A stretch of 64,000 nt of DNA from Candidatus Woesebacteria bacterium (GTDB lineage: Bacteria; Patescibacteriota; Microgenomatia; UBA8517). A program made the position numbers and the translations under genes. The stretch is taken from assembly GCA_013426185.1 (NCBI GenBank), contig CP058602.1, positions 74,231 through 138,230 on the forward strand, in the 5' to 3' direction. Positions 6,119 to 61,419 of this stretch are shown here, piece after piece (position 1 is the first letter of the stretch; each line of letters begins with the position of its first letter). The notes beneath the pieces were generated by a model. That model had not been told where the DNA came from and ran no database searches. It worked only from the letters and a program-made list of their open reading frames with translations.

Positions 6119-6558
6119 AACCTAAATATTAAAACTGTTTTTTTATTTTTTCTCAAGAGGAGAAATTAACTTAAAACTTAAAAGTCAAAAGTCAAAAATA
6201 TAATTCAAAACTCAAAACTCAAAAGTCAAAACTTTCTAATTAGATTATAGATTTTGGATTATAGATTATAGAATTTTGATTTAGGATTTAAGATTTATGA
6301 ATTAAGATAGCAAACAACTCCGACAGCTGACAACTGATAGCTGAAATCCGAATTCTTTTAACTTTTAACTTTGAACTTTTAACTATTTATTAATTTTGCT
6401 TTCTACTTACTACTTTCTACTTGGATCTCTCATAATGCATATACTGTCTTCCGACTAGCTTTGACTGAATCCCGATAGCTTATATCCGACGGCTGATTTC
6501 TGACGTCCGATATCCGACGTTCGATATCCGATATCCGACGACCGACAGCTGACGTCTG
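6119..6558. repeat. mosaic intergenic repeat copy R1 (minus orientation: AT-array, heptamer array, CCGAYATC octamer array)
   Basis: shares long near-identical modules with 14 other intergenic regions in window. Confidence 0.9.
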
Positions 6559-7545
6559 ATGTCCGTTATGCTATATTTTCTTTTAGTGAATAAAAATTAT
6601 CTTCTTTTCTTATTTCTTTTTGTCTTGGGTATTTCTTTTGGCCTTTTATTAGGTCCTAGGTCTTATACGAAAGTAGAAGTTAAACCACCACTTGTTTCTT
6701 CATTTTTAAAAACACCTCTTCCTATTGAAGACAAAAGGATAACATTGATTGCAGTTGGTGATATTCTTCTTGCCCGCAAAGTAAATTATAAAATGGTTAT
6801 GATGAATAATTTTAACTGGCCCTTTGAAAAAGTGGCAGATTTTTTGAAATCTTCCGATTTTACTTTTGCCAATCTTGAGTTGCCGCTTGTTGAAAATTGT
6901 AAGCCGACTGAAACAGGTATGGTTTTTTGTGGTGATAAAAGGGGAGCCTTGGGGCTTGTTTTTGCCGGTATTGATGCCTGTAATTTGGCCAATAATCATT
7001 CTTTAAACTACGGTGAAGATGGCTTGTCTCAAACTAAGCAAATACTTAAAAATGCAGGTATTGCAAGTTTTGGAGGCGCTGATATTTTTAGGAAAGAAAT
7101 AAAAGGTGTTAGGTTTTCCTTTTTGGGTTTTAATGAAGTGGGTTTAGGAGAGGGAGCTTATAAAAAACTTTTATCTCAAGTTGCATCACAAGTAGAATCT
7201 GAGAGAAAGTTGGCGGATGTTGTTGTTGTCAGTTTTCATTGGGGAAATGAGTATACAGAGAATATATCATCAAGACAGAAGGAGTTAGCGCATTTGGCGA
7301 TTGATTCAGGAGGAGATTTGGTGATTGGTCACCATCCGCATTGGGTTCAAGGTCAGGAAGAATATAAAGGCAAGCGAATTTTTTATAGTTTGGGTAATTT
7401 TGTCTTTGACCAGATGTGGAGCGAGAAGACAAAAGAAGGTCTTGTCATTCGTCTCACTTTCGACAGTGATAATCTTTTAAAAGTGGAAGAATTCCCAGTT
7501 AAAATAGAAGACTTTGGCCAACCATATTTGGAAGTGACTTATTAG
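6559..7545 (+). CDS. CapA/PgsA-family metallophosphatase-like protein
   Basis: N-term TM, motifs VVVSFHWGNEY and GHHPHWVQG. Confidence 0.7.
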   Translation: MSVMLYFLLVNKNYLLFLFLFVLGISFGLLLGPRSYTKVEVKPPLVSSFLKTPLPIEDKRITLIAVGDILLARKVNYKMVMMNNFNWPFEKVADFLKSSDFTFANLELPLVENCKPTETGMVFCGDKRGALGLVFAGIDACNLANNHSLNYGEDGLSQTKQILKNAGIASFGGADIFRKEIKGVRFSFLGFNEVGLGEGAYKKLLSQVASQVESERKLADVVVVSFHWGNEYTENISSRQKELAHLAIDSGGDLVIGHHPHWVQGQEEYKGKRIFYSLGNFVFDQMWSEKTKEGLVIRLTFDSDNLLKVEEFPVKIEDFGQPYLEVTY

Positions 7546-7583
7546 TTTGTGATACTTGTTGATTAGTGTAATATAATAGAATT

Positions 7584-8711
7584 GTGTCTAAGTTGAACCT
7601 GGCAGTTATTTTTGGAGCAAAGTCCGCTGAGCATGAGGTTTCCATTGTGACCACTTTTCAAGCTTGGGAATGGATAGACAAAAAGAAGTACAACCCCTTT
7701 CTTATTTATATTGATCAAAATAACAATGCTTATTTATGCCCGCCTCTTAGAAAGGAAAGTTATAAGGATTTTATCAATAAAGTTTTAGAACAGAATAGGC
7801 GTATTGATTTTGTGAAAGGTGGAATAGAGATGAAGGGGGGAATTTTGCTGAAGAAAAGAGTAAATATAGATGTGGCTCTTCTTACAATGCACGGTCTTTA
7901 TGGTGAGGATGGAAAGATTCAAGGCATGCTTGATTTCTTTGATATTCCTTATACCGGCAGTGGGGTTTTGGGTAGCGCTTTAGGGATGGATAAAGTTTTG
8001 ATGAAGGAAATCTTTGAGAAACTTGGTTTGAAAGTTGTTAAATATTTTTGGTTTTATGATATTGAGTATAAAAAAGATAAGTCCTTGTTTTTTAAAAGGG
8101 TAGACAAAGAGCTTGGTTATCCTGTTTTTGTTAAGCCCGCAAATTGTGGTTCAAGTGTTGGAATTAGAAAAGTAAAGAATAGGAAAATGCTAGATGGGGC
8201 TATAAAGCAGGCGGCTAAGTTTGATCACAAGATATTGATTGAAGAGGGTGTAAGTGGTGCTAAGGATATTAACTGTTCAATTTTGGGAGGTTATGATCCT
8301 CAAACTTCAGTTTGCGAGGAAGTTTTAACAGATGAGGAGTTTTTGTCCTTTGAAGAAAAATATCTAAAGGGTGGAAAAACGAAAGGGATGTTAGGTCTTT
8401 CTCGTATTGTGCCTGCTCCTATTCCTGATAAGGCAACAAAGGAAATACAGAGGCAGGCAAAGATGGTTTTTAAGGAGCTGGGTTGCTGGGGAGTTGCAAG
8501 GATGGATTTTCTTTATCAGCCTAAAAGTAGGGCAATCTATCCTAATGAGATAAACACAATTCCTGGCTCTTTAGCCTTTTATTTGTGGAAGGCTAGCGGG
8601 CTTGAACCTTCTTCGTTAATAGACAAACTTGTTAATTTAGCTTTGGAAAGAAAAAAACAACAAGATTCTTTAAGCTTGACTTTTAAGAGCCGAATTCTTG
8701 ATCAAAAGTAG
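7584..8711 (+). CDS. ddl: D-alanine--D-alanine ligase
   Basis: ATP-grasp, N-term LAVIFGAKSAEHEVS, 375 aa. Confidence 0.85.
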   Translation: MSKLNLAVIFGAKSAEHEVSIVTTFQAWEWIDKKKYNPFLIYIDQNNNAYLCPPLRKESYKDFINKVLEQNRRIDFVKGGIEMKGGILLKKRVNIDVALLTMHGLYGEDGKIQGMLDFFDIPYTGSGVLGSALGMDKVLMKEIFEKLGLKVVKYFWFYDIEYKKDKSLFFKRVDKELGYPVFVKPANCGSSVGIRKVKNRKMLDGAIKQAAKFDHKILIEEGVSGAKDINCSILGGYDPQTSVCEEVLTDEEFLSFEEKYLKGGKTKGMLGLSRIVPAPIPDKATKEIQRQAKMVFKELGCWGVARMDFLYQPKSRAIYPNEINTIPGSLAFYLWKASGLEPSSLIDKLVNLALERKKQQDSLSLTFKSRILDQK

Positions 8712-10571: not shown

Positions 10572-10576
10572 TTCTT

Positions 10577-11068: not shown

Positions 11069-11245
11069 GAATTTGTGTTGGGATTTGAAGCTTTTTTACG
11101 AGACTGATATTGAGTGCAGCTAGGATTGGATAATAACACATTGCCGGTGGTAAAACCTAATTAGCAGTGGTGTTGCGGCGAGATCTTTTATCTTTTTACT
11201 CTTCAAGCATTAAGCCACGGGCTTTAGTCTGTGGAGTATCATTTT

Positions 11246-11275
11246 AACTACAAATACATCGATGTATTTGTAGTT
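11246..11275. promoter_or_regulatory. 30-bp perfect palindrome aactacaaatacatc/gatgtatttgtagtt
   Basis: seen in sequence; downstream of cupredoxin gene, followed by AT-rich tract. Confidence 0.45.
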
Positions 11276-11311
11276 ATATTAATTTTGATGAATAGCTGGC
11301 AAGATTAGATT

Positions 11312-11392
11312 ATGAGAAAAATTGAAAAGAAAGTTTGGCCTGAATACTTTCAGGCGATAATGGGTGAGTTTAAGCGGTCTGCCAAATCTTAA
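11312..11392 (+). pseudogene. possible remnant of ASCH/PUA-like domain gene (26-aa ORF MRKIEKKVWPEYFQAIMGEFKRSAKS)
   Basis: N-terminal motif of ASCH-domain proteins followed by premature stop; weak. Confidence 0.25.
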
Positions 11393-11496
11393 TCTTCTTC
11401 CGGGATCGGCTAAGGCGAAGGTTGTTAAGTTTTTGGGAGAAAGCTCTCACTAGGTTTTTGTAGCAGATTCTTGGTGGAGGGATTATGATATAAACA

Positions 11497-12099: not shown

Positions 12100-12182
12100 A
12101 TCTGACATCATAAGGCGGGAGGAGCTTGAAGTCCGGGCCTATATCTTCTGAATTATTTCCAATTTTAGGTTAAAATACTTGT

Positions 12183-12223
12183 ATGAGTTTATCAGTCGGT
12201 ATAGTAGGTCTTCCCAATGTTGG
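12183..12223 (+). repeat. diverged duplicate (35/41 nt) of the first 41 nt of ychF, ~140 bp upstream of the real start
   Basis: atgagtttatcagtcggtatagtaggtcttcccaatgttgg vs atgagtcttagtgtaggtatagtaggccttcccaatgttgg at 12325. Confidence 0.6.
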
Positions 12224-12324
12224 CCCTAGCACAACTCTTACTTGCTCACAAATACTACGTGTTTGTGTCGCAAGGGCGAGTATGCGGGGCTTGTCTTGTT
12301 TTATTATAGAAGGAGGTTTAATAA

Positions 12325-13446: not shown

Positions 13447-13764
13447 TGCGAAACGGTCGAAGCTAGCCGTAAGATTGTATCTAGTATCTAGTATCTTGTA
13501 TTATGTATTATACAGGGAATAAAAGTAGAAAGTAGAATGTAGTAAGTAGAAAGCAACGGATTTCAGATATCAGCTGTCGGATATCAGATATCGGACGTAG
13601 GCTTTCAGCTATCAGAGCTAGTCGGAGCTGATCAGAAACTTGTATCTAGTATCTTGTATTATGTATTATGCATGAAAATGCATTATCCCCATAATACATA
13701 ATTCATAATACACAATACTAAATTCTTTTCCCTTTGTTCTATGTTCTAATGTATAATTACCCTT
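13447..13764. repeat. mosaic intergenic repeat copy R2 (plus orientation; heptamer module, octamer array, 56-nt palindrome, ccctttgttct module)
   Basis: module sharing with other copies. Confidence 0.9.
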
Positions 13765-19993: not shown

Positions 19994-20238
19994 GAGGATT
20001 CGGACATCGGACATCGGCAACCAGACATCGGACGTCGGCTATCGGCTATCGGAATTCAGTCGGAGCTAGTCAGAGCCGACCGGAAGCTAGTATTTAGTAT
20101 TTTGTATTATGTATTATGCATGAGAATGTATTATCCCCATAATACATAATTCATAATACTAGATTCAGGTTTTTCCCTTTGTTCTTTGTTCTAATTTCCT
20201 GTTGTCTTCTTTTTGGAGAGTTATTATAATCAAAAGCT
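19994..20238. repeat. mosaic intergenic repeat copy R3 (plus; octamer array, palindrome, ccctttgttct module)
   Basis: module sharing. Confidence 0.9.
20202..20230 (+). promoter_or_regulatory. candidate promoter TTGTCT-17-TATAAT, -10 ends 8 nt before rpsF ATG (leaderless-type)
   Basis: seen in sequence; embedded at end of repeat copy. Confidence 0.4.
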
Positions 20239-21078: not shown

Positions 21079-21101
21079 TTATCAATTCGTTTAAACCCAA
21101 G

Positions 21102-21347
21102 ATGTTGAAAAAAACCATTTCATCAAGAAAAACAAGACCAATAAATAATATTTGCCCTTTTTGTGATCAAAAGAAGGATCCTGATTATAAAGACTACCAG
21201 TTTTTGGCTAATTTTTTAACAGATAGGGCAAGAATTATGCCTGCTTCTCGCACTGGGGTTTGTGCTAAACATCAAAGGAAATTAAGCCGGGAGGTTAAAA
21301 GGGCTCGTTTTCTAGCTCTTCTTCCTTATATAGAAAAAATCAGCTAA
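21102..21347 (+). CDS. rpsR: 30S ribosomal protein S18
   Basis: CPFC motif, synteny. Confidence 0.85.
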   Translation: MLKKTISSRKTRPINNICPFCDQKKDPDYKDYQFLANFLTDRARIMPASRTGVCAKHQRKLSREVKRARFLALLPYIEKIS

Positions 21348-21359
21348 ATTTAAGTTTTT

Positions 21360-24839: not shown

Positions 24840-25281
24840 ATATTTAGGATAGCAAGACGGCTATCAGACATCGGCTATCGGTCGTCAGACGTCGGATATT
24901 GGGATTTAGTCGGAGTTGGTCGAAGTTGATCGAAAGATTGTATCTAGTATTTTGTATTATGTATTATGCAGGAAATACAAGTAGAAAGTAGTAAGTAGTA
25001 AGTAGAAAGCATTAATAAATAGTTAAAAGTTAAAAGAATTCGGATTTCAGCTATCAGCCGTCAGCTGTTGGAGTTCTTTGTTATTTTAATTCCTAAATCC
25101 TAAATCAAAATTCTATAATCTATAATCCAAAATCTATAATCTAATTAGAAAGTTTTGACTTTTGAGTTTTGAATTATATTTTTGACTTTTGATTTTTAAG
25201 TTTTGAGTTAATTTGTTAACTGTTAATTGTTATATTGTAATTTTATTCAATAATCTATAATCTAGAATCTATAATCTAACA
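24840..25281. repeat. mosaic intergenic repeat copy R5 (plus; near-complete octamer/heptamer/AT-array order)
   Basis: module sharing; inverted partner at 26188-26627. Confidence 0.9.
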
Positions 25282-26187
25282 ATGTTCTCAAAACCAAGAA
25301 TCAAAGCATATCTTTATCTTACGCTTGTCGCTTTCATCTGGGGATTGGCAGGACCTGTTATTAAATACACTCTAGGCGGCATCTCGTCCTTACCCTTTCT
25401 CACTTACCGCTTTGCTATATCCTCAATAGTGGCTTTAATCAGCTTTAATTTCATAGCCAAAAGAAAGCTTAACACTAAAGAATGGTTTATTGTCATTATC
25501 TACAGTCTTTTTGCCTCAACCTTTTCCCTTTACTTTCTCTTTATCGGCCTTGAAAAGACGACGATGCTTGACACTGCTTTAATCACTACTTTCAATCCAC
25601 TTCTAATTGCAGTAGCTGGATTTTTAGTCTTCAAAGACAAAATAACCTCAAGAGAAAAAGTTGGCATTGCGCTTGCACTTATAGGAACGGTAATTGCCAT
25701 TATTCAGCCGTTAATTGAAAATGAGAATAGTATACGCCTTCAAGGAAATATCTATGTGGTTTTGTATCTTCTGACAAATACAATTGCCGCTATTTTGGCC
25801 AAAAAACTAACCAAACTTGATATTGCCCCGCTTTTTATAACCAACTTTTCATTCATTATCGGATTTTTAAGTCTTTTGCCTCTTTCCATCTATCAAAATG
25901 TAAATCTTATCTCCATAATTTCCCATCTTGAGCTAAGATACCATCTAGGTGTTTTGTTTATGGCCTTAATTTCGGGAAATCTAGCTTATACCCTTTGGGT
26001 AAAAGGACAGAAAAGTATTGAAATAAGCGAAGCTTCTCTTTTCTCTTATCTACAGCCCATATTCTCTACCCCACTTGCAATACTTTGGCTTAAAGAAGAA
26101 ACTAGCAAAACCTTCTTTCTTGGGGCGCTTTTCATCATCATCGGAGTTATTATCGCTGAGACAAAGAAGAGAAGAATTACAGACTAG
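25282..26187 (+). CDS. EamA/DMT-family transporter
   Basis: 10 TM, duplicated EamA domains. Confidence 0.75.
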   Translation: MFSKPRIKAYLYLTLVAFIWGLAGPVIKYTLGGISSLPFLTYRFAISSIVALISFNFIAKRKLNTKEWFIVIIYSLFASTFSLYFLFIGLEKTTMLDTALITTFNPLLIAVAGFLVFKDKITSREKVGIALALIGTVIAIIQPLIENENSIRLQGNIYVVLYLLTNTIAAILAKKLTKLDIAPLFITNFSFIIGFLSLLPLSIYQNVNLISIISHLELRYHLGVLFMALISGNLAYTLWVKGQKSIEISEASLFSYLQPIFSTPLAILWLKEETSKTFFLGALFIIIGVIIAETKKRRITD

Positions 26188-26627
26188 AGAACAGAGATTA
26201 GAGAATAAAATTCTAAATGACAAATTAACTCAAAACTTAAAAATCAAAAGTCAAAAATATAATTCAAAACTCAAAAGTCAAAACTTTCTAATTAGATTAT
26301 AGATTTTGGATTATAGATTATAGAATTTTGATTTAGGATTTAGGAATTAAAATAACAAAGAACTCCAACAGCTGACGGCTGATAGCTAAAATCCGAATTC
26401 TTTTAACTTTTACCTCTTGCCTTTTACCTACTAGGTTAGAACATAGAACAGAGAACAAAGGGGAAAAGTTTTGAACTTAGTATTATGAATTAAGGGGATA
26501 ACGCATTTTCCTGCATAATACATAATACAAAATACTAAATACAATCTTCCGGCCGGCTCCGACTAGCTCCGACAACCAATATTCGATGTCCGATGTCTGA
26601 TATCCGATGTCTGACGTCAGCTGCTTT
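26188..26627. repeat. mosaic intergenic repeat copy R6 (minus; approximate reverse complement of R5)
   Basis: module sharing. Confidence 0.9.
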
Positions 26628-39390: not shown

Positions 39391-39659
39391 AATGAAAGCT
39401 GTTGGAGTAGGAGGTGCTCCCCCGGGTTTTTATTTTTTTATCCCGGGATTTTTATTTTTGAAATAAATTATTTTTTTATATTTTCTCTTTTTAAATTGTC
39501 TTAGGATTTTTTTATTTCCAAATTAAACCCGAAAAAGCAATCGATATTATAAGAAAGTGTCAAAAGTGCTTTTAGACCGTAATCACGGACAAAAAGGAAC
39601 TTGTTTTAGACGACCAGTTAATCGTCTAAACTGAGAAACCCCCTTTAAAATCGATTTGG

Positions 39660-40000: not shown

Positions 40001-40016
40001 GTGTCGCACAATCTTA

Positions 40017-40045
40017 TTGACAAGTTTGTGGGGGAGTTCTACAAT
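40017..40045 (+). promoter_or_regulatory. near-consensus promoter TTGACA-17-TACAAT, -10 ends 11 nt before xer ATG
   Basis: seen in sequence. Confidence 0.45.
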
Positions 40046-40056
40046 GAATTTAGCTA

Positions 40057-41007
40057 ATGCAAGATAACCTGCCTAAAAACAGCGAACTGTCGTCCAAGAT
40101 TTCTGCTTTTTTGGAGTATCTTGAGGTTGAAAAGGGCTCCTCTTCCCTAACGGTAAGAAACTATAGACATTATTTAACTCGCTTTTTGTTATGGCTTGAG
40201 AAACAAGGTCTTAAGCCGACTCTTCAAAGTATTAAGCCTGAAGTAATTCATAATTATCGTCTTTATCTTTCGCGCTTGGTTGATAAAGACGGCAGGACTT
40301 TATCCCGCAAGACCCAAGGCTATCATTCAATAGCGCTTCGCAGTTTTCTAAAATGGTGTTTGAAAAATGATCTTGAAGTTATGTCTCCTGAAAAGATTGA
40401 ATTGCCAAAAATTGCCGAAAGACAGGTGAAGTTTTTAACAGGAAAGGAGGTTGATAGGCTTTTAAACGCACCATCTTTGTCAACTATAGTCGGCAAGCGT
40501 GACAAGGCTATTTTGGAAGTTCTTTTTTCAACTGGTTTGCGTGTTTCTGAGCTTGTTTCTTTGAATCGTGATAATGTGGATATTAAAAGGCGTGAGTTTG
40601 GAGTGGTTGGTAAAGGCGGCCGTGCAAGAGTGGTCTTTCTTTCAAGTCGTGCCGCTTCTTATCTTGATGAATATCTTAAAGCAAGAGAAGATAGTTTTAA
40701 GCCGCTTTTTATTAGGCACAGTAGGAATTTGGCGCCCAATTTGAAAGATAACCAGATGAGGCTAACAGCTCGTTCTGTTCAGCGAATCTTGAAAAAATAT
40801 TCTCGCAAGGTTAAGTTGCCTTTTGATGCGACACCCCATGTTTTGCGTCATTCTTTTGCGACCGATCTTTTAATGGCAGGAGCTGATATTAGATCAGTTC
40901 AGGAAATGCTGGGGCATAAAAATATCCAGACGACTCAAATTTATACTCATGTAACCCACCGTCATCTAAAGGAGATTTACGATACCTATCACGGCCGCTC
41001 TAGTTAG
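40057..41007 (+). CDS. XerC/XerD-like tyrosine site-specific recombinase
   Basis: core-binding N-domain, catalytic R...HxxR...Y (HVLRHSF...IYTHV). Confidence 0.85.
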
Positions 41008-43679: not shown

Positions 43680-44260
43680 AGTTATAAAGCAAGAGGAATT
43701 CGGATATCGGATGTCAGACGTCGGACATCGGCTATCGGCTATCAGACTTCAGTTGTCGGCTATCGGAATTCAGTCGAAGCTGGCCGGAAGCTAGTATTTA
43801 GTATTTTGTATTATGTATTATGCAGGAGGGACGAGTAGAAAGTAGAATGTAGGAAGTAGTAAGGGTTTATAATTTCTACTGTATCCGTGTGCTAGTACAC
43901 GGACCAAACCCTTTAGGGGGCCAGCGGCTATTCTCTACTCTCTATTCTCTATTCTGTTTGTGATTTGAAAAATTAGATAATTGTGATTTGTTTAGAATTT
44001 AGATATTAGAATTTAGAATTTGTATCTTGTAATTTGGAATTTGTAATTTTCTCTTTTTTCTTTGTTCTATGTTCTTTGTTCTAACCTAGTAGGTAAAAGG
44101 CAAGAGTTAAAAGGTAAAAGGAATTCGAGTAGAAAGTAGAATGTAGTAAGTAGAAAGCAAAATTCTATAATCTATAATCCAAAATCCATAATCTAATCAT
44201 AAAGTTTTAGCTTTTGAGTTTTAAATTTTTAGTTAATTTGTTAACTATTGTATACTTATT
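43680..44260. repeat. mosaic intergenic repeat copy R11 (plus) carrying a ~100-bp unique insert (43862-43960)
   Basis: module sharing. Confidence 0.9.
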
Positions 44261-45043: not shown

Positions 45044-45684
45044 TGGCCACACCATGCAACTTATATGGGTCGCTGAATATGGTCGTAGCTGTGGGGGCCG
45101 GTATCAATAATCACGTATCACGAAGCAAGTATCAAGAATGGGTAAAAGGCAAGAGACTACAGCTATCGGATATCAGACATCAGATTTCGGCCATCAGAAG
45201 TTAGTAGAAAGTAGAACGTAGTAAGTAGAAAGCATTAATAAATAGTTAAAAGTTAAAAGTTAAAAGAATTTGGATTTCAGCTATCAGTTGTCTGCTGTCG
45301 GAGTTAATTGTTATCTTAATTCATAAATCTTAAATCCTAAATCTAGATTCTATAATCTGTTTGTAATTTGTTTATTACTTGTATATTGTTTGTATATTGG
45401 AATTTGTAATTTGGAATTTGCCTGCCCTGAATCGAATTTATTCTGGTTCAGGGTTTAGAATTTGGAATTTTATTCTCTAATCTCTAATCTGTATTCTGTA
45501 ATCTAATTTTTGACTTTTGACTTTTGAGTTTTAAGTTTTGAGTTTTGAGTTTTGAATTATATTTTTGACTTTTGAGTTTTAAGTTTTGAGTTTTGAGTTT
45601 TGAATTATATTTTTGACTTTTGAGTTTTAAGTTTTAAGTTAACTTCTAATTTCCCTTTTGTTCTCTGTTCTTTGTTCTATTTTA
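45044..45684. repeat. mosaic intergenic repeat copy R12 (plus; tandem-duplicated AT-array; last module overlaps hppA 3' end)
   Basis: module sharing. Confidence 0.9.
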
Positions 45685-47897
45685 TGGCTTCTTGATATTC
45701 CCCAAGCTAGAATGAGAAGCATAAGTAAGCCGAACACAGTCAATTCAGATTTATTTTGATATTGAACAATAACAGGAGCAGCAATTAAGCTTATAAGGTT
45801 GACGACTTTAATCATCGGATTTAAAGCAGGACCTGCAGTGTCCTTGAGAGGGTCTCCAAAAGTGTCACCTTCTACACTTGCTTTGTGTGATGGTGACCCC
45901 TTCCCCCCCAAGTTGCCATCCTCAATGTATTTTTTGGCATTGTCTAATGCTCCTCCAGCAACAGCCATAAACACAGCCATTAATTGTCCTACCAAGATTA
46001 CTCCTGCTAAAAATGCACCTAAAGCTTCGACCTGAAATACTGCTCCGACAAAAAGAGGTAAGGAGATAGAGATGGCAACTAATGTTAAAAGTTCCCTTTG
46101 CGCAGCGCTTGTAGTGATGGCGACTACCTTGTCATATTCCGGTGATACTTTGCCTTCAAGAACCCCTTTTCTTGCGAATTGTTTTCTTACTTCTTCTACA
46201 ACTTTGTTTGCTGCTTTAGCTACTGCCTTGATTGAATAAGCAGAGAAAATAAAAGGCAATGACCCACCCAACAGTAGTCCGATTATTGTGTCAAGTTTTG
46301 AGATTGTTATTTTCTCAATAACCGTTAACCCCAGTCTTGCCTGGACAACGCCCACATCAGTCACATAAGAGAAAAATAGACTGGTGGCCGCTATTACTGC
46401 GGAAGCAATTGCCACTTGTTTAGTAATTGCTTTAGTGGTGTTGCCAGCGGCATCAAGATCAGCCATTATTTTCCATGCCTTTTTACCAACACCCGACATC
46501 TCACCGATCCCATTGGCATTATCTGCAATTGGTCCAAACGAGTCCATGGCAACATTATTACCAGTTAGAGAAAGCATTCCTATTCCGACCATGGCTACTC
46601 CATAGAGCATGTATATGGGAGCATGGCCCGCAAAGGATAATAGACTTATACCTATTGCGATGGCAATGGCTATAATGCTAAAAACGCTTGCCTCCATGCC
46701 AACTACCAATCCTGAAAGAATAGTGGTTGCTGTTCCTGATTTTGTGGAATCAGCTATTTCTCTAACAGGCTTGTAAGCTGATGAAGTAAAGTATGAAGTT
46801 AATGGATTAAATAAATAAGCTAGTAACACACCAGCTGTATTGAGCAGAGCCAGCCTCCATTCACCAGCGTAGTATAAAGCGAGAGCGAAAGAAAATGCGA
46901 TGACAAGAACGCTTGATAAAGCATAAGATCGAAACATTGCTTCTTCTGGGTTTTCTGTACGAATTAGTTTTGATTTCGCTTTGCCCCAGACAGGGACTAA
47001 CAAAGTTCCTACGATTGATGCTATAACACCTGATGCTCTTACAGCTAGTGGGTATATTATCCAGAAGCTATTTCCAGTTAGTTGAACCAGAACGAGACCT
47101 AAAATTAGTGAGGATACCATTGTCACTTCGTAAGATTCAAACACATCGGCGGCCATCCCAGCACAGTCTCCCACATTGTCGCCTACAAGGTCGGCTACTA
47201 CCCCTGCGTTTCTAGGATCGTCCTCGGGGAGGTTTTCTTCGATCTTTCCTACAAGATCGGCACCGACATCAGCGGCTTTCGTGTAAATACCTCCACCTAT
47301 TCTCATAAAAAGGGCAACTAAAGTCCCTCCAAGACCAAAACCCAGTAAAGCGTCTGGAGATGCTTTACCAAAAATGATAAATATCACAATTCCTCCCAGC
47401 AACCCCAATCCACTAGCGAGCATGCCCGTAAAGGTGCCTGCTTTGTGTGCGATGGCTAGTGCTTCGTTTGCCCTACCCAATTTAGCTTGGTTGGCGACTC
47501 TGACGTTACCTTCTATTGCAACTCTCATGCCCAGTTGGCCCACTAGAGTTGAGAAAGTGGCGCCGATTATGAAAGCTATCGTTCTGCCAATGGCTACAAC
47601 AGGCACCGCCTTGTCCCCAAAAATTTCAATAGATTCTTTGGATGGAGGCACTATATAAACACTTAGAAACAAAACTAAGGTCAATGCTAGTACCGAGATG
47701 ATAATTGTTTTTAGCTGTTTTCTTAAGTAACCTTCAGATCCTTCTTTGATAGCGGTCCACACTTTTACCATCTTGGCATTTCCTTTGGGAGAAGAAATAA
47801 CATTTTTCCAGAGCCATAGAGCGTACATGAGACTTACTAGAGAAGTTCCTAATACAAAGACAATTATGTTCTTTTCAATTAGAGATAGCTCGCTCAT
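45639..47897 (-). CDS. hppA: K+-insensitive/H+-translocating membrane pyrophosphatase
   Basis: GGIYTKAADVGADLVGK, DNVGDCAGMAADVFESY motifs, ~16 TM, 752 aa. Confidence 0.9.
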   Translation of the reverse strand: MSELSLIEKNIIVFVLGTSLVSLMYALWLWKNVISSPKGNAKMVKVWTAIKEGSEGYLRKQLKTIIISVLALTLVLFLSVYIVPPSKESIEIFGDKAVPVVAIGRTIAFIIGATFSTLVGQLGMRVAIEGNVRVANQAKLGRANEALAIAHKAGTFTGMLASGLGLLGGIVIFIIFGKASPDALLGFGLGGTLVALFMRIGGGIYTKAADVGADLVGKIEENLPEDDPRNAGVVADLVGDNVGDCAGMAADVFESYEVTMVSSLILGLVLVQLTGNSFWIIYPLAVRASGVIASIVGTLLVPVWGKAKSKLIRTENPEEAMFRSYALSSVLVIAFSFALALYYAGEWRLALLNTAGVLLAYLFNPLTSYFTSSAYKPVREIADSTKSGTATTILSGLVVGMEASVFSIIAIAIAIGISLLSFAGHAPIYMLYGVAMVGIGMLSLTGNNVAMDSFGPIADNANGIGEMSGVGKKAWKIMADLDAAGNTTKAITKQVAIASAVIAATSLFFSYVTDVGVVQARLGLTVIEKITISKLDTIIGLLLGGSLPFIFSAYSIKAVAKAANKVVEEVRKQFARKGVLEGKVSPEYDKVVAITTSAAQRELLTLVAISISLPLFVGAVFQVEALGAFLAGVILVGQLMAVFMAVAGGALDNAKKYIEDGNLGGKGSPSHKASVEGDTFGDPLKDTAGPALNPMIKVVNLISLIAAPVIVQYQNKSELTVFGLLMLLILAWGISRSHKIEQRTENKREIRS

Positions 47898-48457
47898 TTT
47901 TCAAAAAAAAACAAACTCGTCAACTGCGAGTCTTGAGTTATTCTAGGAATATGTGTTTTTTTTGTCAAGAAGGAAAATTAGTCGGAGCTGGCCGAAAGAC
48001 AATATTGTATCTAGTATCTTGTATTATGTATTATGCAGGAAATACAAGTAGAAAGTAGAAAGTAGTAAGTAGAAAGTAGAAAGCAAAATTAATAAATAGT
48101 TAAAAGTTCAAAGTTAAAAGTTGGAATTTTTTGTTTGTAATTTGGAATTTGTGATTTGTAATTTTCCCTTTGTTCTTTGTTCTAACCTAGTAGGTAAAAG
48201 GCAAGAGGTAAAAGGTAAAAGGAATTCGAGTAGAAATTAGAACGTAGTAAGTAGAAAGCAAAATTCTATAATCTATAATCTATAATCCAAAATCCATAAT
48301 CTAATCATAAAAAGTTTTAACTTTTGAGTTTTAAGTTTTTAGTTAATTTGTTAATTTGTTAACTGTTAATTGTTATATTGTAATTTGTATATTGTTTGTA
48401 TATTGGAATTTGGAACTTGGAATTTGTAATTTTATTCTTTGTTCTTTGTTCTAATTT
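47898..48457. repeat. mosaic intergenic repeat copy R13 (plus)
   Basis: module sharing. Confidence 0.9.
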
Positions 48458-51088: not shown

Positions 51089-51450
51089 ATAAATTACAAA
51101 TTACAAATCACAAATTACAATATACAGATTCTAAATTCTAATATCTAAATTCTAAATCCTGAACCAGAATAAATTCGGTTCAGGGCAGGCAAATTACAAA
51201 TTACAAACAAAAAATTCCAACTTTTAACTTTTAACTTTGAACTTTTAACTATTTATTAATTTTGCTTTCTACTTACTACGTTCTACTTTCTACTTATATT
51301 TCCTGCATAATACATAATACAAGATACTAGATACAATCTTTCGGTCGGCTTCGACTGAATTCCGATAGCCGACAACTGAAGTCTCACAGCTGATAGCCGA
51401 TCTCCGATATCTGACATCCGATCTCCGAATTCCTCTTGCCACTTTTGGAA
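51089..51450. repeat. mosaic intergenic repeat copy R14 (minus)
   Basis: module sharing. Confidence 0.9.
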
Positions 51451-55617: not shown

Positions 55618-56178
55618 ATGAAATTATCTGCCAAAGGCTTCACCTTAATAGAGCTTCTCATAGTCATCGCGGTTTTGGGCATTCTGGCAGTTACTGTTCT
55701 TGCTGCTATTAATCCAATAGAACAGATTAATAGATTTCGTGATACTGGCTCTAGGTCCGATGCAGAGCAATTGATTGGAGCTATTGATAGGTTTTATGCC
55801 TCAAGAGGTTATTATCCGTGGCAGACGGTTGCTGGTACCGCTGGCGCTGCTGTTGCTTGGACGCAAGTCACTACAGCATGGTCGGGAGCTGCCACCACTT
55901 CCGTTTTGAGCCAATTATCTGCAGCAGGTACGAAGGAAATCAAGCAATCTTTTGTTAGTAGGATTACTGCACCTAACTATAATCCTTTATGGATCTATAA
56001 TAGAGGGCAGGCTGGTGACAGTTATTATATCTGTTTTTCACCTCAGTCTAGTTCCTTTAGAACAGAGGCTAACACAAGGTGTGCTAATACCTCTGGATCT
56101 GGTTTGCCAGTTGATTTGAGACCTATAGCAGGTACTGTATGCGGTAACACAATATCTCCATACTCTTGTCTTCCATAA
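55618..56178 (+). CDS. Type IV pilin (probable major pilin)
   Basis: class III signal KG|FTLIELLIVIAVLGILA, Glu+5. Confidence 0.8.
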   Translation: MKLSAKGFTLIELLIVIAVLGILAVTVLAAINPIEQINRFRDTGSRSDAEQLIGAIDRFYASRGYYPWQTVAGTAGAAVAWTQVTTAWSGAATTSVLSQLSAAGTKEIKQSFVSRITAPNYNPLWIYNRGQAGDSYYICFSPQSSSFRTEANTRCANTSGSGLPVDLRPIAGTVCGNTISPYSCLP

Positions 56179-56191
56179 TCTGTTATTTTCT

Positions 56192-57871
56192 ATGAGCTTG
56201 CTCAAGCAAAAAGCAAGTTTTTTGGTTTCAAAGCTTGGTAGTAGTTTTTTTTTGCTTTCTCTGGTTTTGATCTTGTCCTTTGTTTTTTACAGAATCTCGA
56301 TTAGATTTGAATATGTAAATCTAGATGATACTCTTTTGGTAAAGTATCGCCTTCTTTATATATTTAACCCCGCTAATATAATTAATTCTTTTAAAAGTAA
56401 TGTTATGTATCTTTCTGACAGTACCGCTTTTTATTATCGTCCGGTTCTTACAATATCTTTTATTTTAGATGCTTTAATTTTTAAAGATAATTTTTGGGGT
56501 TACCATCTAACTAACATACTGCTTCATCTTGTCTCTGTTGTTTTGTTCTATAGACTTATGCTTCGTCTTCGATTAGAAAAATATGTTTGTTTTTTTCTCA
56601 CACTAGTTTTTGCTCTTCATCCTGTTTTAATGCAGACTATAGTTTGGGTTCCTGGGAGAAATGACAGTCTTCTTTTTATTTTTTTGATTTCGGCTCTCTT
56701 TTATTTTTTGAATTATCTTGAATCATCTAGTCTGAAGGATTTTATCTTTTTTGTCTTTTTTACCTTTCTTGCGGTCTTTGTGAAAGAAACGGCAATAATG
56801 TTTTTGCCTGTCTTATTTCTTTTTATTTTTTTGGTTAGAAGAGACAAAAAAGCTTTTAAGAGATCTTTACCTCTTTTGGGCGTGTTTTTTTTAATGTTTG
56901 CCTTGTGGTACCTAATGGCTACTTCTTTTAGTGATAAGCAAGGTAGTTACTGGAGTTATCTGACAAGTACTAACTGGTTTGATGCTATACCAAAAACTAT
57001 AATACCGGGTTATCTGATCTATTTAGGCAAGATCTTTTATCCTTTTGCTCTCTCCGTCTTTCCTGTAGTCGATCTTCGAGATGCTAATATCTTTCCTGGT
57101 ATTGTAGCTTTTATCCTTCTTGTTTTTTCATTTTTATTTTTTGTTAAAGAGGGTAGAAAAAAGGTTTTTATTTTTGGTTTATTATGGTTTTTTATACTCC
57201 TTTTTCCAACTTTTATCAATCTTATGCCTGGAGAGCCGAATATAATTTACGAGCACAGACTCTATTTGCCCATTGTGGGTCTTCTAATTTCTTTTTCCCA
57301 GATCGAGTTTGTTAAAAGATCTCTCTCTAATAGTAAGGTGGCGTTTTTTTTATCTTTGATTATTACCCTTGTTTTTTTCTATGGTAATAGAAGGCATATA
57401 TTTAATTTCAAAGATAGCCTTTCTTTTTGGGAAAGTGCTTATTCCACTTCTTCTAAGCATTTTGTAACGGAAGTGGGCCTTTCGGGTGTTTATCTGTCTC
57501 GAGGTGATCTTGATAAGGCAGAGCCGGTCTTTAAGAAATTAGATGAGATAAAGCCAAATACGATAATATCACATTTGGGTTATGCTTCTTTGTTTTATCA
57601 TAAAGGGGAATATGAGAAGTCTTTGCAAGAGTTAGATGAGGTTTTGAAGATTAATCCGAAATTACCAAGAGCAATGCAATATATAGCATCAATCAAAGAA
57701 CATCAGGGTAAATATGATGAGGCTGAGAAATATTATCTTGAGGCTGTTGAGATTGATGACAAAAATGTAGATCTTTTAATGTCTTTGGTTTCCTTTTATG
57801 TTAAAAGGGGTAAAATTGATAAAGCTAAAGAAGTGTATAAAAAAGTTCAGGATATGGGAATTTCCTTTTGA
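56192..57871 (+). CDS. polytopic membrane protein (~12 TM) with C-terminal TPR repeats; GT-C/PMT-like candidate glycosyltransferase
   Basis: TM-rich N-terminal 400 aa + TPR block; located between pilin and pilD. Confidence 0.5.
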   Translation: MSLLKQKASFLVSKLGSSFFLLSLVLILSFVFYRISIRFEYVNLDDTLLVKYRLLYIFNPANIINSFKSNVMYLSDSTAFYYRPVLTISFILDALIFKDNFWGYHLTNILLHLVSVVLFYRLMLRLRLEKYVCFFLTLVFALHPVLMQTIVWVPGRNDSLLFIFLISALFYFLNYLESSSLKDFIFFVFFTFLAVFVKETAIMFLPVLFLFIFLVRRDKKAFKRSLPLLGVFFLMFALWYLMATSFSDKQGSYWSYLTSTNWFDAIPKTIIPGYLIYLGKIFYPFALSVFPVVDLRDANIFPGIVAFILLVFSFLFFVKEGRKKVFIFGLLWFFILLFPTFINLMPGEPNIIYEHRLYLPIVGLLISFSQIEFVKRSLSNSKVAFFLSLIITLVFFYGNRRHIFNFKDSLSFWESAYSTSSKHFVTEVGLSGVYLSRGDLDKAEPVFKKLDEIKPNTIISHLGYASLFYHKGEYEKSLQELDEVLKINPKLPRAMQYIASIKEHQGKYDEAEKYYLEAVEIDDKNVDLLMSLVSFYVKRGKIDKAKEVYKKVQDMGISF

Positions 57872-58677
57872 AAGAAATGATTTTACTTATTATTTTTATT
57901 CTTGGTTTAATTTTTGGTTCTTTTGTTTCGGCTGTTACCTATCGCCTTCCAAAAGGAATTTCTTTTATTTCAGGTCGGTCTTTTTGTCCTAATTGTAAGC
58001 ACAATATTTCTTGGTACGACAATATTCCTCTTTTTTCTTTTTTGCTTCTTCGCGGCCGTTGCCGGTATTGTGGCAAAAAAATTTCTTGGCGCTATCCCCT
58101 ACTTGAGCTAATAACAGGATTGGGGTTTGTTTTGATTTATTTGTCTTATCTCTCCTGTCTTGGACAAGGTCCGACCCTGTCCAGTAATTTTTTTTGCAGT
58201 CAGGCTGGAAGAATGGGATTTTTTACCCTTCCCTATTGGTTCTTCACTTTTATCTTGCTTCTTGTTGTTTTTGTCATAGATTTTGAACATAAAGTTGTCT
58301 TTGACAGCTTGGTCTTTATTCTTTTTATTTTTTTTCTTGCCACTTCCCTTTTCTTTTCGGATAGCACTTTGTATCTCAACTTGTTGGTAGCTTTTTCTAT
58401 TTCATTATTTTTCTTATTTTTGCATCTTTTTACCTCTGGTCGGGGTATGGGGCTTGGGGATGTTAAATTAGCCTTGCCTCTTGGTTTTTATCTTGGATTT
58501 CCTCTTAGTTTGGTTTGGCTTTTTCTTTCTTTCTTGACTGGAGCAGCAGTTGGAATTATATTGATATTATTGGGCAGGGCTAAATTTGGAAAGCCGATTC
58601 CATTTGGTCCTTTTATGATCTTTTCTTTTTGGGTGGTGTTATTTTTAGGCGAAAGAATAATTTTTTTCTTAAGATGA
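57868..58677 (+). CDS. pilD: Prepilin peptidase (A24 family)
   Basis: N-term CxxC...CxxC zinc motif, DiS_P_DiS + peptidase A24 TM core. Confidence 0.85.
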   Translation: MKEMILLIIFILGLIFGSFVSAVTYRLPKGISFISGRSFCPNCKHNISWYDNIPLFSFLLLRGRCRYCGKKISWRYPLLELITGLGFVLIYLSYLSCLGQGPTLSSNFFCSQAGRMGFFTLPYWFFTFILLLVVFVIDFEHKVVFDSLVFILFIFFLATSLFFSDSTLYLNLLVAFSISLFFLFLHLFTSGRGMGLGDVKLALPLGFYLGFPLSLVWLFLSFLTGAAVGIILILLGRAKFGKPIPFGPFMIFSFWVVLFLGERIIFFLR

Positions 58678-59324
58678 AAAGAAAAAGTGCTTTTACTTTA
58701 ATTGAGCTTTTGGTTGTGGTTGCTTTTTTGTCTTTGATGGTTTTGGTGGCTATTTTTGCTTTTAAAGGACCCTTGTTTAAGGGTTATGATGCGAGGAGAA
58801 AGTCAGATCTCAATAGGATTAAAATAGCTCTTGAAGAATATGAGAAAGATCATAATTGTTACCCTCCTTATTTGCCTTCTTGCAAGGGTTCAGATGCTGG
58901 TATTTTAAAATCATATATACCCATTATCCCTTATGATCCTCATACTAAAACTGATTATCTTTATTATCCTGATCCTACATCAACTTGTGCTAAATGGGCT
59001 TGGCTTTTTACCAATCTAGAATATACTGGTGATCCGAAAATTACAGAAATCGGTTGTCAAAACGGCTGTGGACCAAATCAAGCTTATGGTTTTAATTATT
59101 ATGTGACTACTCCTGGTGCTCCTGATCCTTTTAAGTCTGGTAGCGCCAATGTCCCCCCTGATGTCAGTGGTAATTATTATGGTTGTTTTTCTGGGGTTTG
59201 CCAACCAATAGGAGTTAACTCAGATACTCATCTACCAGTCTGTCAACCTAATTTTACTAGTTCTGATTGTCGTAACTTATGTCAAGACGAATCTGGTCCC
59301 ATAAACGAATGCAACTCTTACTAA
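58674..59324 (+). CDS. Type IV pilin-like protein, Cys-rich C-terminus
   Basis: SAFTLIELLVVVAF prepilin motif; listed ORF start 58629 overlaps pilD, ATG 58674 preferred. Confidence 0.75.
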   Translation: MKRKSAFTLIELLVVVAFLSLMVLVAIFAFKGPLFKGYDARRKSDLNRIKIALEEYEKDHNCYPPYLPSCKGSDAGILKSYIPIIPYDPHTKTDYLYYPDPTSTCAKWAWLFTNLEYTGDPKITEIGCQNGCGPNQAYGFNYYVTTPGAPDPFKSGSANVPPDVSGNYYGCFSGVCQPIGVNSDTHLPVCQPNFTSSDCRNLCQDESGPINECNSY

Positions 59325-59881
59325 GCTTAAAAAAAGATTTTTGGAAATTGTTTTTTTTGTTTTTTTTGGTTTCTCTAGCTTCTGCTTTGGGTTTTAATGA
59401 ATCTGACAAAAGAGAAAGAGATGTCAGAAGGAATGAAGATATTAGTAATATTGCCAAGGCAATAGAAGCTTACAGGCAGGCTTTTGGCTATTATCCTGAA
59501 TCAAAAGATGGAAAAATAGTAGCTTGCGCGGGTAATGATACCAAAGTTTTAAGGGATAAAAATGTTCTTGGAATAAGAGAAAAAGGAGCTAGCCGAGATA
59601 AACTGGTTGGTCTTGCTCCTTGTGAGTGGGGTCAAGATCCTCTAAGAGATGTTTCAGATGGTAATTACCCTGCTTTTTTAGACAAACTTCCTCAAGATCC
59701 AGAGTCTAGTCGTGGTTTTAGCTACCGCTACGATTTTGAAAACGGTCGTTACTTTGTTTATGTAGCTTACGAGACAAAAAGAATGCCTGACTATAGCAAG
59801 AATGTATTAAACAAAAAAGTTGCTTGTGGATACAAATTTTGTAATGGAGCTCGTACAAATGGCATTGAAATAGTCAAATAA
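59279..59881 (+). CDS. pilin-paralog-like protein lacking canonical prepilin cleavage motif
   Basis: hydrophobic segment then RDVRRNEDISNIAKAIEAYRQAFGYYP resembling neighbouring pilins. Confidence 0.5.
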   Translation: MSRRIWSHKRMQLLLSLKKDFWKLFFLFFLVSLASALGFNESDKRERDVRRNEDISNIAKAIEAYRQAFGYYPESKDGKIVACAGNDTKVLRDKNVLGIREKGASRDKLVGLAPCEWGQDPLRDVSDGNYPAFLDKLPQDPESSRGFSYRYDFENGRYFVYVAYETKRMPDYSKNVLNKKVACGYKFCNGARTNGIEIVK

Positions 59882-59903
59882 TGATGTTAATATGAATTAG
59901 ATT

Positions 59904-60467
59904 ATGCATAGCCTGCCTTATCAAGAAAGAAAATCTCCAGCTTTTACTTTAATTGAGCTTCTGGTTTCAATAACTATTTTAGGGATATTAGCCGTTGTTG
60001 TTTTGGGTGGTTTTAGATCGTCACAGATGAGATCGCGTGATGCAAAAAGGAAATCTGATTTAAAGCAAATTGCCAATGCTTTGGAGATGTTTTATTCAGA
60101 TAAGGGGTTTTATCCGCCTTCAACAGCTGATGGCAGAATTAGAGCTTGCCCTTACTATGCACCTCCCGATACTCCAATAGTTTGTAATTGGGGATCCATT
60201 GATTACACTAGCGAGTTTAAAGATGCTAGTAGCGGAGTGATCTACTTCAAATCACTTCCCAAAGATCCTTCGGGATTTTCTTATTATTATCGTTTAACCA
60301 ACGATGGCAAGGGATTTCAACTTTATGCACACCTGGAAAATGATCAAGATCAGAATTGCATTGATTCAAATTGCTCTATGGTGTCTGGGCTTCCTAGCGG
60401 TGTTAGTTGTTCTGGGGTTTGCAATTTTGCTATTACCAGTGCAAATGTCACAGCAAAAACTAATTAG
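59904..60467 (+). CDS. Type IV pilin-like protein
   Basis: PAFTLIELLVSITILGILA; RDAKRKSDLKQIANALEMFY. Confidence 0.8.
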   Translation: MHSLPYQERKSPAFTLIELLVSITILGILAVVVLGGFRSSQMRSRDAKRKSDLKQIANALEMFYSDKGFYPPSTADGRIRACPYYAPPDTPIVCNWGSIDYTSEFKDASSGVIYFKSLPKDPSGFSYYYRLTNDGKGFQLYAHLENDQDQNCIDSNCSMVSGLPSGVSCSGVCNFAITSANVTAKTN

Positions 60468-60476
60468 TATAATAAT

Positions 60477-60965
60477 ATGAGAAAAAGAAGCGGTTTAGGT
60501 TTTACCCTGATCGAGCTTTTGGTAGTTATTTCTATTATTGGAATTTTGGCAACATTGCTTTTGGCAAATTACAGCGCGACTCGTGAGAGAGCAAGAGATG
60601 CGCAAAGAAAGTCTGACTTAAGAAACATCCAGACAGCTTTGAGAATGTTTTATAATGATTTTAATAGATATCCTAGTTCCAGCAGTGGGCAGATAGTTGG
60701 TTGCGGGACCAGTGGTAATACTGTCTGCGGTTGGGGTGGAACTTTTTCGGCAGGTTCAACCAATGTTGTCTATATGAATATTCTTCCTAAAGATCCGCAG
60801 AGTAATAGGAGCTACAATTATGTCGCTGCAGGTGGTGAGTATACTCTTTCTGCGTGTTTAGAAAACAAGGGTGATGATAAATGCAAAAAGGATGCTAGTG
60901 GTAATTTGGTTTCTTGCTCTTGGATGTCAGGGGTTGATGGTTGTGTTTATGAGGTCAAGCCGTGA
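60477..60965 (+). CDS. Type IV pilin-like protein
   Basis: LGFTLIELLVVISIIGILA; RDAQRKSDLRNIQTAL. Confidence 0.8.
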   Translation: MRKRSGLGFTLIELLVVISIIGILATLLLANYSATRERARDAQRKSDLRNIQTALRMFYNDFNRYPSSSSGQIVGCGTSGNTVCGWGGTFSAGSTNVVYMNILPKDPQSNRSYNYVAAGGEYTLSACLENKGDDKCKKDASGNLVSCSWMSGVDGCVYEVKP

Positions 60966-61419
60966 TATGCTAGTATCAAGTATCACGAAGCAAGTGTCAG
61001 GAATAGGTAAAAGGCAAGAGGTAAAAGAATTCGGACATCAGACATCGGCCGTTGGCTGTCGGATGTTAGAACTTAGTCGAATCTAGCCGGAAGCTAGTAT
61101 TTAGTATTTGGTATTTTGTATTATGTATTATGGGGATAATGCATTTTCTTGCATAATACATAATTCATAATACTAAGTTCAGTGTTCCTAATCTGTTTGT
61201 AATTTGTTTATTGGTATTTGTATATTGTTTGTATATTGGAATTTGTGATTTGTAATTTTTGTTTAGGATTTAGATATTAGAAATTAGAATTTAGAATTTG
61301 TAGTTTGGTTTGCTGGTTCTTGAATGTAGTAAGTAGAAAAGTATTGTGATTTTTAAAAGTTTTGGCTAGACTTATTTTAGTTGGTTGTTGAGGTTTGGAA
61401 GTTGCTAGTTGTGTTTACA
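60966..61419. repeat. mosaic intergenic repeat copy R15 (plus) inside the pilin array
   Basis: module sharing. Confidence 0.9.

Follow-up and report, generated by a model that had tools for sequence, protein, structure and literature searches.

A Collinear Family of Heptanucleotide Mosaic Repeats Between the Genes of a Candidatus Woesebacteria Genome

The Locus and Its Host

The stretch of DNA analysed here, referred to as the window, comprises 64,000 nt of a Candidatus Woesebacteria contig (CP058602.1), and all statements on genes absent from the window cover these 64 kb. It carries the housekeeping genes dnaX, recR, cysS, ddl, ychF, folD, rpsB, tsf, frr, proS, ssb, dnaB, efp, gyrA and gyrB, a membrane pyrophosphatase gene and a type IV pilus cluster. 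Fourteen of its intergenic regions hold members of one repeat family, AT-rich (GC 26–39%) and free of open reading frames (ORFs), in which short tandem arrays, nearly all of period 7, are joined in a conserved order into long mosaics.

As judged from GyrB, the host is a member of Candidatus Woesebacteria, in the Candidate Phyla Radiation (CPR, or Patescibacteria). This protein is 87% identical to its counterpart in CP055308.1, the complete 802-kb genome of Candidatus Woesebacteria Ch104a (hereafter L002), and the next ~60 matches come from Woesebacteria, Microgenomates or Patescibacteria. A cyanobacterial (Nostocales) host is ruled out by these relatives and by the lack of cyanobacterial marks in the window, where HIP1 is absent and the short tandemly repeated repetitive (STRR) units CCCCAGT, TTGGTCA and CAACAGT are not enriched.

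Extent of the Repeat Family

The repeats had been described in an initial annotation of the window, whose observation is real and whose interpretation is supported. All 14 complete regions reported there exist and have sequence in common; a fifteenth, given as a fragment after position 63913, shares no 14-mer with the family and is not a member. Across the whole window, recurrent 14-mers cover 6,868 bases, as against ~830 in shuffled sequence, and they are confined to the 14 regions, apart from a cluster of paralogous pilin-like genes. The regions add up to 6,103 bp, or 9.5% of the window, in keeping with the first estimate of about 9%. Their placement was right, but some outer parts, within or next to the regions as first delimited (47898–47979, 40001–40056 and ~61340–61419), consist of unique DNA that bears promoters.

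Alignment with MAFFT, with six regions reverse-complemented, gave a single collinear scaffold in which modules are present or absent, confirming that one ordered module set underlies the family and that both orientations occur (8 plus and 6 minus). The statement that the repeats stand at every operon boundary was too strong, because four of the 18 gaps of at least 225 bp between called ORFs (2134–2471, 11069–11496, 12100–12324 and 21079–21359) are without a repeat; the other 14 carry one.

Anatomy of the Mosaic Element

Read in plus orientation, the scaffold begins with module i (GTATCAAGTATCACGAAGCAAG..GGTAAAAGGCAAGAG), followed by module ii, a [TCRGNYR]n array, and by module iii (AGTCGRAGCTRGCCGRAAG). 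Module iv (GTATYTAGTATYTTGTATTATGTATTATGCA) comes next and continues, as had been proposed, either into an array of AGTAGAA/AGTAGTA units or into an AT-rich palindrome. The slot behind this array or palindrome is filled by module v (TTAATAAATAGTTAAAAGTT..) or, instead, by hairpin A (GGGTTT..GTATCCGTGTRCTAGTACACGGAC..AAACCC). A second, short TCRGNYR array then leads to module vi, made of TTTGKAA/TTTAGAA arrays with or without hairpin B (CCCTGAAYC..GRTTCAGGG), a genuine hairpin present four times in the window. Module vii (CTTTGTT units plus AGGTAAAAGGCAAGAGGTAAAAGG) is followed by a second AGTAGAA array, and module viii, composed of CTATAAT units, TTTTGAS arrays and GTTAACTGTTAATTGTTATATTG, comes last.

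The dominant period is 7 (105 arrays by Tandem Repeats Finder), and it is the period of nearly all arrays. Within the repeats, the fraction of identical bases is 0.57 at lag 7 and falls to 0.30 at lag 8, with 0.27 outside the repeats. The units once read as 8-mers (CCGAYATC) are TCRGNYR heptamers, in which T1, C2 and G4 hardly vary and the remaining positions are unconstrained. These arrays (e.g., 33859–33933 and 43700–43767) can be read as hexamers spaced by one base, either of the GAYRTC type (GATATC, GACGTC and GACATC/GATGTC) or CAGCTG. The module ii arrays thus look alike on both strands. It had been claimed that every module is itself a tandem array, which does not hold: module iii shows a period of ~10 nt, and unique linkers and hairpins are present as well.

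The AT-rich palindrome, hairpin A and hairpin B are optional cassettes that fold significantly as single-stranded DNA (z −3 to −6). Such local hairpins, in long ORF-free regions between operons, would also be seen if the regions encoded structured non-coding RNAs. Whole elements folded as RNA, however, do no better than shuffles (z = 0.19 and −0.89), and structure is not kept at orthologous sites. The search of Rfam 15 matched the tRNA-Leu only, and the repeats stayed without a match when E was relaxed to 0.5. It is thus very unlikely that the elements are genes for structured RNAs.

The elements have no terminal inverted repeats: the search for inverted repeats returned internal, weak complementarity between arrays alone, and the ends of the elements vary from copy to copy. 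REP/BIME-like palindromic units (~35 nt, often in inverted pairs) are not their make-up, since the bulk consists of direct heptamer arrays. The arrays also differ from those of CRISPR, in which repeats of 24–48 nt alternate with unique spacers of similar length; here the units are 7 nt long and placed head to tail without spacers.

The Fourteen Elements

The first element, r1 (6119–6558, minus), fills the divergent gap between an ORF at 5771–6118 (minus) and a PGA_cap gene at 6559–7545 (plus), and it contains modules viii, vi', ii', v, iv-b, iii and ii. Between ychF and folD, r2 (13447–13764, plus) has two iv cores, the second with a palindrome (13656–13704), while the short r3 (19994–20238, plus) reads ii-iii-iv-palindrome-vii', its palindrome lying at 20104–20152. 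The near-complete r4 (24840–25281, plus), upstream of an EamA gene, holds a 168-nt block (25049–25216); its inverted partner r5 (26188–26627, minus), with a palindrome at 26480–26528, lies downstream of the same gene. Another short form, iii'-iv-iv-b-viii, is found in r6 (29801–30062, plus) and corresponds to the long form once all the DNA that separates its two AGTAGAA arrays is removed.

Hairpin B (31890–31918) and a palindrome with a flipped loop (32013–32061) are both present in r7 (31804–32280, minus). The longest TCRGNYR array of all (33859–33933, 10.7 units) belongs to r8 (33480–33932, minus), which lies between the tRNA-Leu gene (minus) and a Na/H-exchanger gene. The element r9 (39660–40000, minus) carries hairpin B at 39759–39787 and is followed by the unique, promoter-bearing edge 40001–40056. 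The long r10 (43680–44260, plus) occupies the divergent gap between gyrA and the gene at 44261, with hairpin A at 43863–43911 and two AGTAGAA arrays. In a convergent gap, r11 (45044–45684, plus) combines hairpin B (45425–45453) with a triple block of TTTTGAS arrays, and it closes with 45 nt that also belong to the 3´ end of the pyrophosphatase ORF (45639–47897).

Also long, r12 (47980–48457, plus) lies between the start of the pyrophosphatase gene and the end of gyrB; the DNA at 47898–47979, at first included in it, is unique and bears a promoter and a leader hairpin. The divergent gap between a holB-like gene and pilB is occupied by r13 (51089–51450, minus), with hairpin B at 51158–51184. Finally, r14 (60966–61340, plus) has a palindrome with a flipped loop (61118–61166) and borders, at ~61340–61419, on conserved unique DNA upstream of the next pilin-like gene.

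Remodelling at Orthologous Sites

The close relatives compared are syntenic contigs of metagenome Ga0272448 and others (L109, L112, L122, L147, L152, L165 and L178), whose flanking proteins are 92–99% identical to those of the window. The element sites are occupied in all of them, and every orthologous element compared differs in structure or module composition. The unique ORF-free DNA at 38930–39650, for example, is ~97% identical to L178, and the adjoining r9 is unalignable. In L147, r12 is without exactly the 225 nt that lie between two AGTAGAA arrays, and r10 is distinguished from the copy of a relative by whole-unit indels (7, 10 and 7 nt), together with a 200-nt insert inside hairpin A. 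At r13 and r8, the window has cassette v and the relative has hairpin A, and in r1, r2, r6, r9, r11 and r14 the edges are kept and the interiors are replaced. Furthermore, in 9 of 10 elements a paralog from the window matches at least as many bases (at 85% identity or more) as the positional ortholog. Judged from these alignments, the elements are remodelled much faster than the surrounding DNA. Slippage or recombination had been put forward as the source of the differences between copies, and this finds support in the unit indels, the deletion between arrays, the replaced cassettes and an inversion, all seen at orthologous loci.

The same comparisons bear on the possibility that the mosaics were produced artificially by metagenome assembly. 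In its favour, the repeats are long, alike and of low complexity, and an exact 168-nt inverted repeat could lead an assembler to place the EamA segment either way round. This explanation is extremely unlikely, given that the same family recurs at the same syntenic positions in many independent assemblies, that intact conserved genes flank the repeats on the 352-kb contig, and that the repeat boundaries coincide with gene ends and promoters.

In the more distant L002, the sites of r12, r13 and r14 are gaps of 0–100 bp. The converse is also found, with a heptamer composite of 330 bp in L002 where the window has 52 bp. Empty sites were seen in L002 only, which at 87% GyrB identity is too diverged for target-site duplications to be read. 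This genome, the closest one in GTDB, has a 200-bp palindromic composite of its own (5013–5208 of the L002 locus), with AATGGTT, GATTTAG, TAGAATT and CATTAAC arrays, between pilC and the next gene, a place where the window has 52 bp.

A further difference between the repeats and the surrounding DNA concerns ACGT, which is avoided about 10-fold outside the repeats (20 occurrences against 194 expected) and occurs 17 times within their 6.1 kb, about the expectation from composition. The value within the repeats fits young DNA with a fast turnover. Other palindromes are also avoided outside the repeats (GTAC 42, CATG 65 and TCGA 63, against 194 expected). This avoidance of short palindromes suggests restriction avoidance by the genome, which the repeats have escaped.

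Inversions and a Replaced Gene

Between its identical arms, the AT-rich palindrome carries its loop in either of two orientations (GCAKGAAAATGCATTATCCCC vs GGGRAYAATGCATTTTYCTGC). The loop points one way in r2, r3, r5 and r9 and the other way in r7 and r14, and both forms occur in many other contigs. As read from these copies, the loop is a case of hairpin flip-flop.

At a larger scale, r4 and r5 are inverted copies that bracket a gene for an EamA-family transporter (25282–26187, plus) and include an exact inverted repeat of 168 nt (25049–25216 / 26220–26387). In L112 this gene is oppositely oriented relative to its neighbour, as compared with the window. It alone, of the plus-strand genes of the window, has a clearly negative top-strand GC skew (−0.171). 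Taken with the opposite orientation in L112, this anomaly indicates that the window appears to carry the derived arrangement. Whether it reflects a recent inversion or a misassembly, the difference in orientation is caused by the repeats.

The pyrophosphatase gene (45639–47897) lies between r11 and r12. It is 80% identical to the counterpart in L147/L151, the neighbouring genes reaching 94–99%, and only 48% identical to that of L002, in which GyrB is 87% identical. From these identities, the gene looks like an in-place replacement by a xenolog. The GC content of the gene is 0.42–0.43, above the window average. A hairpin followed by a run of nine T residues (47933–47913) lies behind the pyrophosphatase promoter and just before the ATG; it is conserved in L147 and could possibly be an attenuator-type leader.

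Distribution of the Family

JGI metagenome contigs contain the core 19-mer TTGTATTATGTATTATGCA in more than 113 stretches, among the matches listed, and about two-thirds of these have the neighbouring modules in the same order. More than 70 further copies of the family, again among the matches listed, are present in other assemblies from many independent metagenomes. Some 60 copies outside the window comprise ~45 different module strings, all of them collinear, which extends the ordered mosaic beyond the window.

About one-third of the TTGTATTATGTATTATGCA matches listed belong to an unrelated, highly conserved multi-copy sequence of GC 0.41–0.47, containing ...gttacttttgtcttTTGTATTATGTATTATGCAcccaatcgtctcctgccagg..., in L084, L094, L113, L124, L130, L131 and others (Ga0049105 and Ga0209255 contigs). 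This is probably a repeat of another organism.

In 80 gyrB loci from other Woesebacteria and Microgenomates, period-7 arrays make up 0–1.5% of the DNA, against 5.5% in the window. Other Woesebacteria have short heptamer arrays only, placed in short intergenic gaps, and their vocabulary of units is partly common with that of the window. Leaving aside multiples of three, the Tandem Repeats Finder period met most often in these 80 loci is 7, with 158 arrays as compared with 56 of period 8. Exact strings are common to the window and L026 (24/24, AGGTAAAAGGCAAGAGGTAAAAGG) and to the window and L025 (27/27, TTTTGACTTTTGAGTTTTAAGTTTTAA), and 43 nt within arrays match L002 at 95% identity. Carriage by phages was rejected, four module patterns having no match in 2.9 million viral contigs. 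Literature searches on intergenic or heptamer repeats of CPR bacteria and Woesebacteria found no such repeats described in CPR bacteria.

Signals Around the Elements

The position of the elements at transcription-unit boundaries brings up the alternative that the arrays are selected cis-acting DNA, acting as promoters or UP elements, as terminators or insulators, as phased binding sites for nucleoid or recombination proteins, or as DNA-uptake signals of the type IV pilus. Module viii indeed contains TTGACT-N16-TATTTT, module viii-a contains TATAAT, and promoter-like matches exceed those of shuffled sequence. In addition, the heptamer vocabulary and the preference for period 7 extend across Woesebacteria, and the hairpin modules have the significant DNA folds given above.

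The arrangement of the elements argues against this alternative. Counted from the coordinates, module viii faces a gene start in five cases and a gene end in four, and the orientation of an element is unrelated to the direction of the flanking genes. The two best promoter matches (11/12) lie in unique conserved DNA between a repeat and a gene. One of them (40017–40045) precedes the xerC-like gene outside r9, and the other, sigma-70-like and on the minus strand (47968–47940), precedes the pyrophosphatase gene outside r12. With the best promoters outside the repeats, the elements therefore sit between functional signals and do not supply them. Terminator-like sites show no enrichment in one stretch (8 versus 8.2) and only a moderate one in another (20 versus 10.6), where most of them are inside genes. 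Moreover, the modules at orthologous sites differ among close relatives, and sites in L002 are empty. A promoter or terminator role tied to orientation was rejected, the module ends facing gene starts and gene ends about equally, and the broader proposal of selected cis-acting DNA is held to be unlikely. At the r13 site, a promoter motif conserved in the relatives is absent from the window.

Mobility and the Search for an Enzyme

It has also to be considered that the elements as wholes, or some of the hairpin modules in them, represent miniature non-autonomous mobile elements (MITE/REPIN/SDR-like) mobilized in trans by a transposase from another part of the genome, with the mosaic arising by nested insertion. 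The family is dispersed over many loci in both orientations, occupancy differs from that of L002 in both directions, and hairpin A, hairpin B and the palindrome come or go as whole units between orthologous sites. Both orientations of the palindrome are seen, and identical module strings are found in distant Woesebacteria.

The hallmarks of a transposon are nevertheless absent from the window. Terminal inverted repeats are lacking and the ends differ between copies. No transposase, RAYT included, was found among the ~60 ORFs of the window. The only recombinase there is a XerC/D-like tyrosine recombinase (40057–41007), which is syntenically conserved, also in relatives without the expansion. 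The clearest structural change, the deletion between internal direct arrays, is a signature of recombination, and the four module patterns are missing from the 2.9 million viral contigs. The elements are non-coding and non-autonomous, and their mobilization as miniature elements is rather unlikely.

A Proposed Model Based on Slippage and Recombination

The explanation preferred here, with moderate confidence, is that STRR-like heptanucleotide arrays have expanded in this lineage into interspersed mosaic elements, driven by slippage and homologous recombination. Heptamer arrays would have been combined with a few AT-rich hairpins and unique linkers to give long, interspersed mosaics. These would occupy only the places that tolerate extra DNA in a compact CPR genome, namely from the end of a transcription unit to the next promoter. 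Replication slippage would alter the number of units within arrays. Homologous recombination between arrays, within an element or ectopically by gene conversion, could delete, duplicate or swap the intervening cassettes, because the same arrays recur within and across elements; the order of modules would be conserved because the recombination takes place between collinear partners. Recombination between inverted arms or inverted copies would flip hairpin loops and whole genes. The result would be hypervariable intergenic DNA and local plasticity of the genome. New sites might be colonized by template switching or conversion, for which the short heptamer arrays found in most intergenic regions of Woesebacteria would be the seeds. 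The elements are probably selfish or, as we infer, neutral, and not regulatory.

Several points weigh against this explanation. Exact module strings of 24–27 nt are common to the window and to L025 and L026, whose GyrB is only 74–76% identical, a degree of conservation unexpected for neutral junk that suggests selection, horizontal spread or real mobility. Slippage and conversion alone do not explain the colonization of empty sites. The scan for transposases covers 64 kb, and the rest of the genome may encode a trans-acting enzyme. Repeat-rich stretches also have a modest excess of promoter-like hexamer pairs (40 versus 26±5 and 45 versus 34±5). Finally, the inversion of the EamA gene could be an ambiguity of orientation in short-read assembly across the 168-nt exact inverted repeat.

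Some of these observations would be accounted for if the arrays were a selected, clade-wide "grammar" of Woesebacteria, with a lineage-specific system for binding, recombination or uptake that reads phased 7-bp sites. This proposal, which we regard as improbable, would explain the exact strings at ~75% GyrB identity, the inverted EamA gene and the xenologous pyrophosphatase, the last two of which both lie between repeat copies. If it were true, the shared arrays would be portable homology arms by which strains exchange or invert single-gene cassettes.

Other Features of the Window

The DNA adjoining r9, at 38930–39659, is a 730-nt, AT-rich, ORF-free non-coding region with a DnaA box at 39193, ~97% identical in L178 and without a match in Rfam or a significant fold. 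It was rejected as an oriC, as it contains one perfect DnaA box without a cluster and without a switch of GC skew. The type IV pilus cluster (55618–63913) comprises pilB, a pilT-like gene, pilC and a prepilin peptidase gene, after which come several paralogous pilin-like genes in a row, marked by N-terminal methylation motifs. Almost everywhere in the window the GC skew of the top strand is positive, its cumulative value rising monotonically, and the plus strand holds 47 of the 62 ORFs. It seems that the window belongs to a single replichore with a strong gene-strand bias.

Relation to Known Repeats and Significance

Different kinds of bacterial extragenic repeats share features with these elements. 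The BIME/REP sequences of enterobacteria consist of ~35-bp REP palindromic units that alternate in orientation, are bound by IHF, gyrase and Pol I, and are linked to RAYT. Like the elements of the window, they are extragenic mosaics of few motifs at operon boundaries and in both orientations; the present elements differ in consisting of direct heptamer arrays, with no RAYT in the window. The BOX elements of Streptococcus pneumoniae are built as boxA-boxB(n)-boxC from modules of ~45–60 nt, and a complete element is able to fold stably. Ordered modules, a variable number of internal units and intergenic dispersal are common to both, whereas BOX has three modules and the elements of the window have more than 10, with period-7 arrays and no global fold. 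Small inversions associated with hairpins, in which the loop flip-flops, are known from plastid non-coding DNA. The palindrome described here likewise has its loop both ways between identical inverted arms, as one module of a dispersed bacterial family.

Heptamer arrays are also known from cyanobacteria. The STRR sequences of heterocystous cyanobacteria were reportedly described by Mazel and co-workers in 1990. They resemble the present arrays in having tandem 7-nt units, several unit families, many dispersed intergenic sites, variation between strains and no known function. The window has 7-nt units and dispersed non-coding copies (14 sites in 64 kb) as STRR do, but it has neither the canonical units nor a cyanobacterial host. 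Here the unit sequences are others, they are carried by a CPR bacterium whose genome is ~1 Mb in size, and the arrays are chained in conserved order, with linkers and hairpins, into mosaics of 250–640 bp. In Nostoc punctiforme, Elhai and colleagues are said to have found, in 2008, small dispersed repeats nested in tandem heptamer arrays. That study is cited in PMC3116915. Small hairpin-forming inserts within intergenic tandem heptameric arrays are seen in both cases; the phylum and the sequences are different, and mobility of the hairpin modules is only putative here.

Intergenic heptamers of the GGGNATC type have been described in Xanthomonas and Nostoc, where they lie between the same genes in related strains and vary in length and sequence (Rehm et al., 2015; PMC4692102). 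The same work cites the heptanucleotides of Calothrix and reports a general excess of heptameric repeats in bacteria, for which polymerase slippage is the hypothesis. Both systems thus have variable intergenic heptamer arrays at the same loci, with slippage proposed for each. The GGGNATC repeats are G-rich, quadruplex-capable and of a single unit type, in contrast to the AT-rich mosaics of many unit types in the window. The elements had been described as far longer and more modular than REP/BIME, Correia or MITE families, which overstates their distance from what is known. Their combination of features and their host lineage are new, but heptamer arrays and modular extragenic repeats are kinds already known.

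CPR/Patescibacteria are seen as having streamlined genomes with few repeats. About one-tenth of this 64-kb stretch of a CPR bacterium is a single, fast-evolving repeat family; if this density held genome-wide, it would amount, by extrapolation, to some 80–100 kb in a genome of ~1 Mb. Such repeats offer an explanation for fragmented CPR assemblies and for ambiguities of orientation, and they are hypervariable strain markers. Furthermore, they provide concrete recombination hotspots, with a gene inversion, a deletion between arrays and a replaced gene, in bacteria whose genome dynamics are almost uncharted. The excess of heptanucleotide repeats in bacteria, itself unexplained, extends with this family to a new phylum and in an unusually elaborate form.

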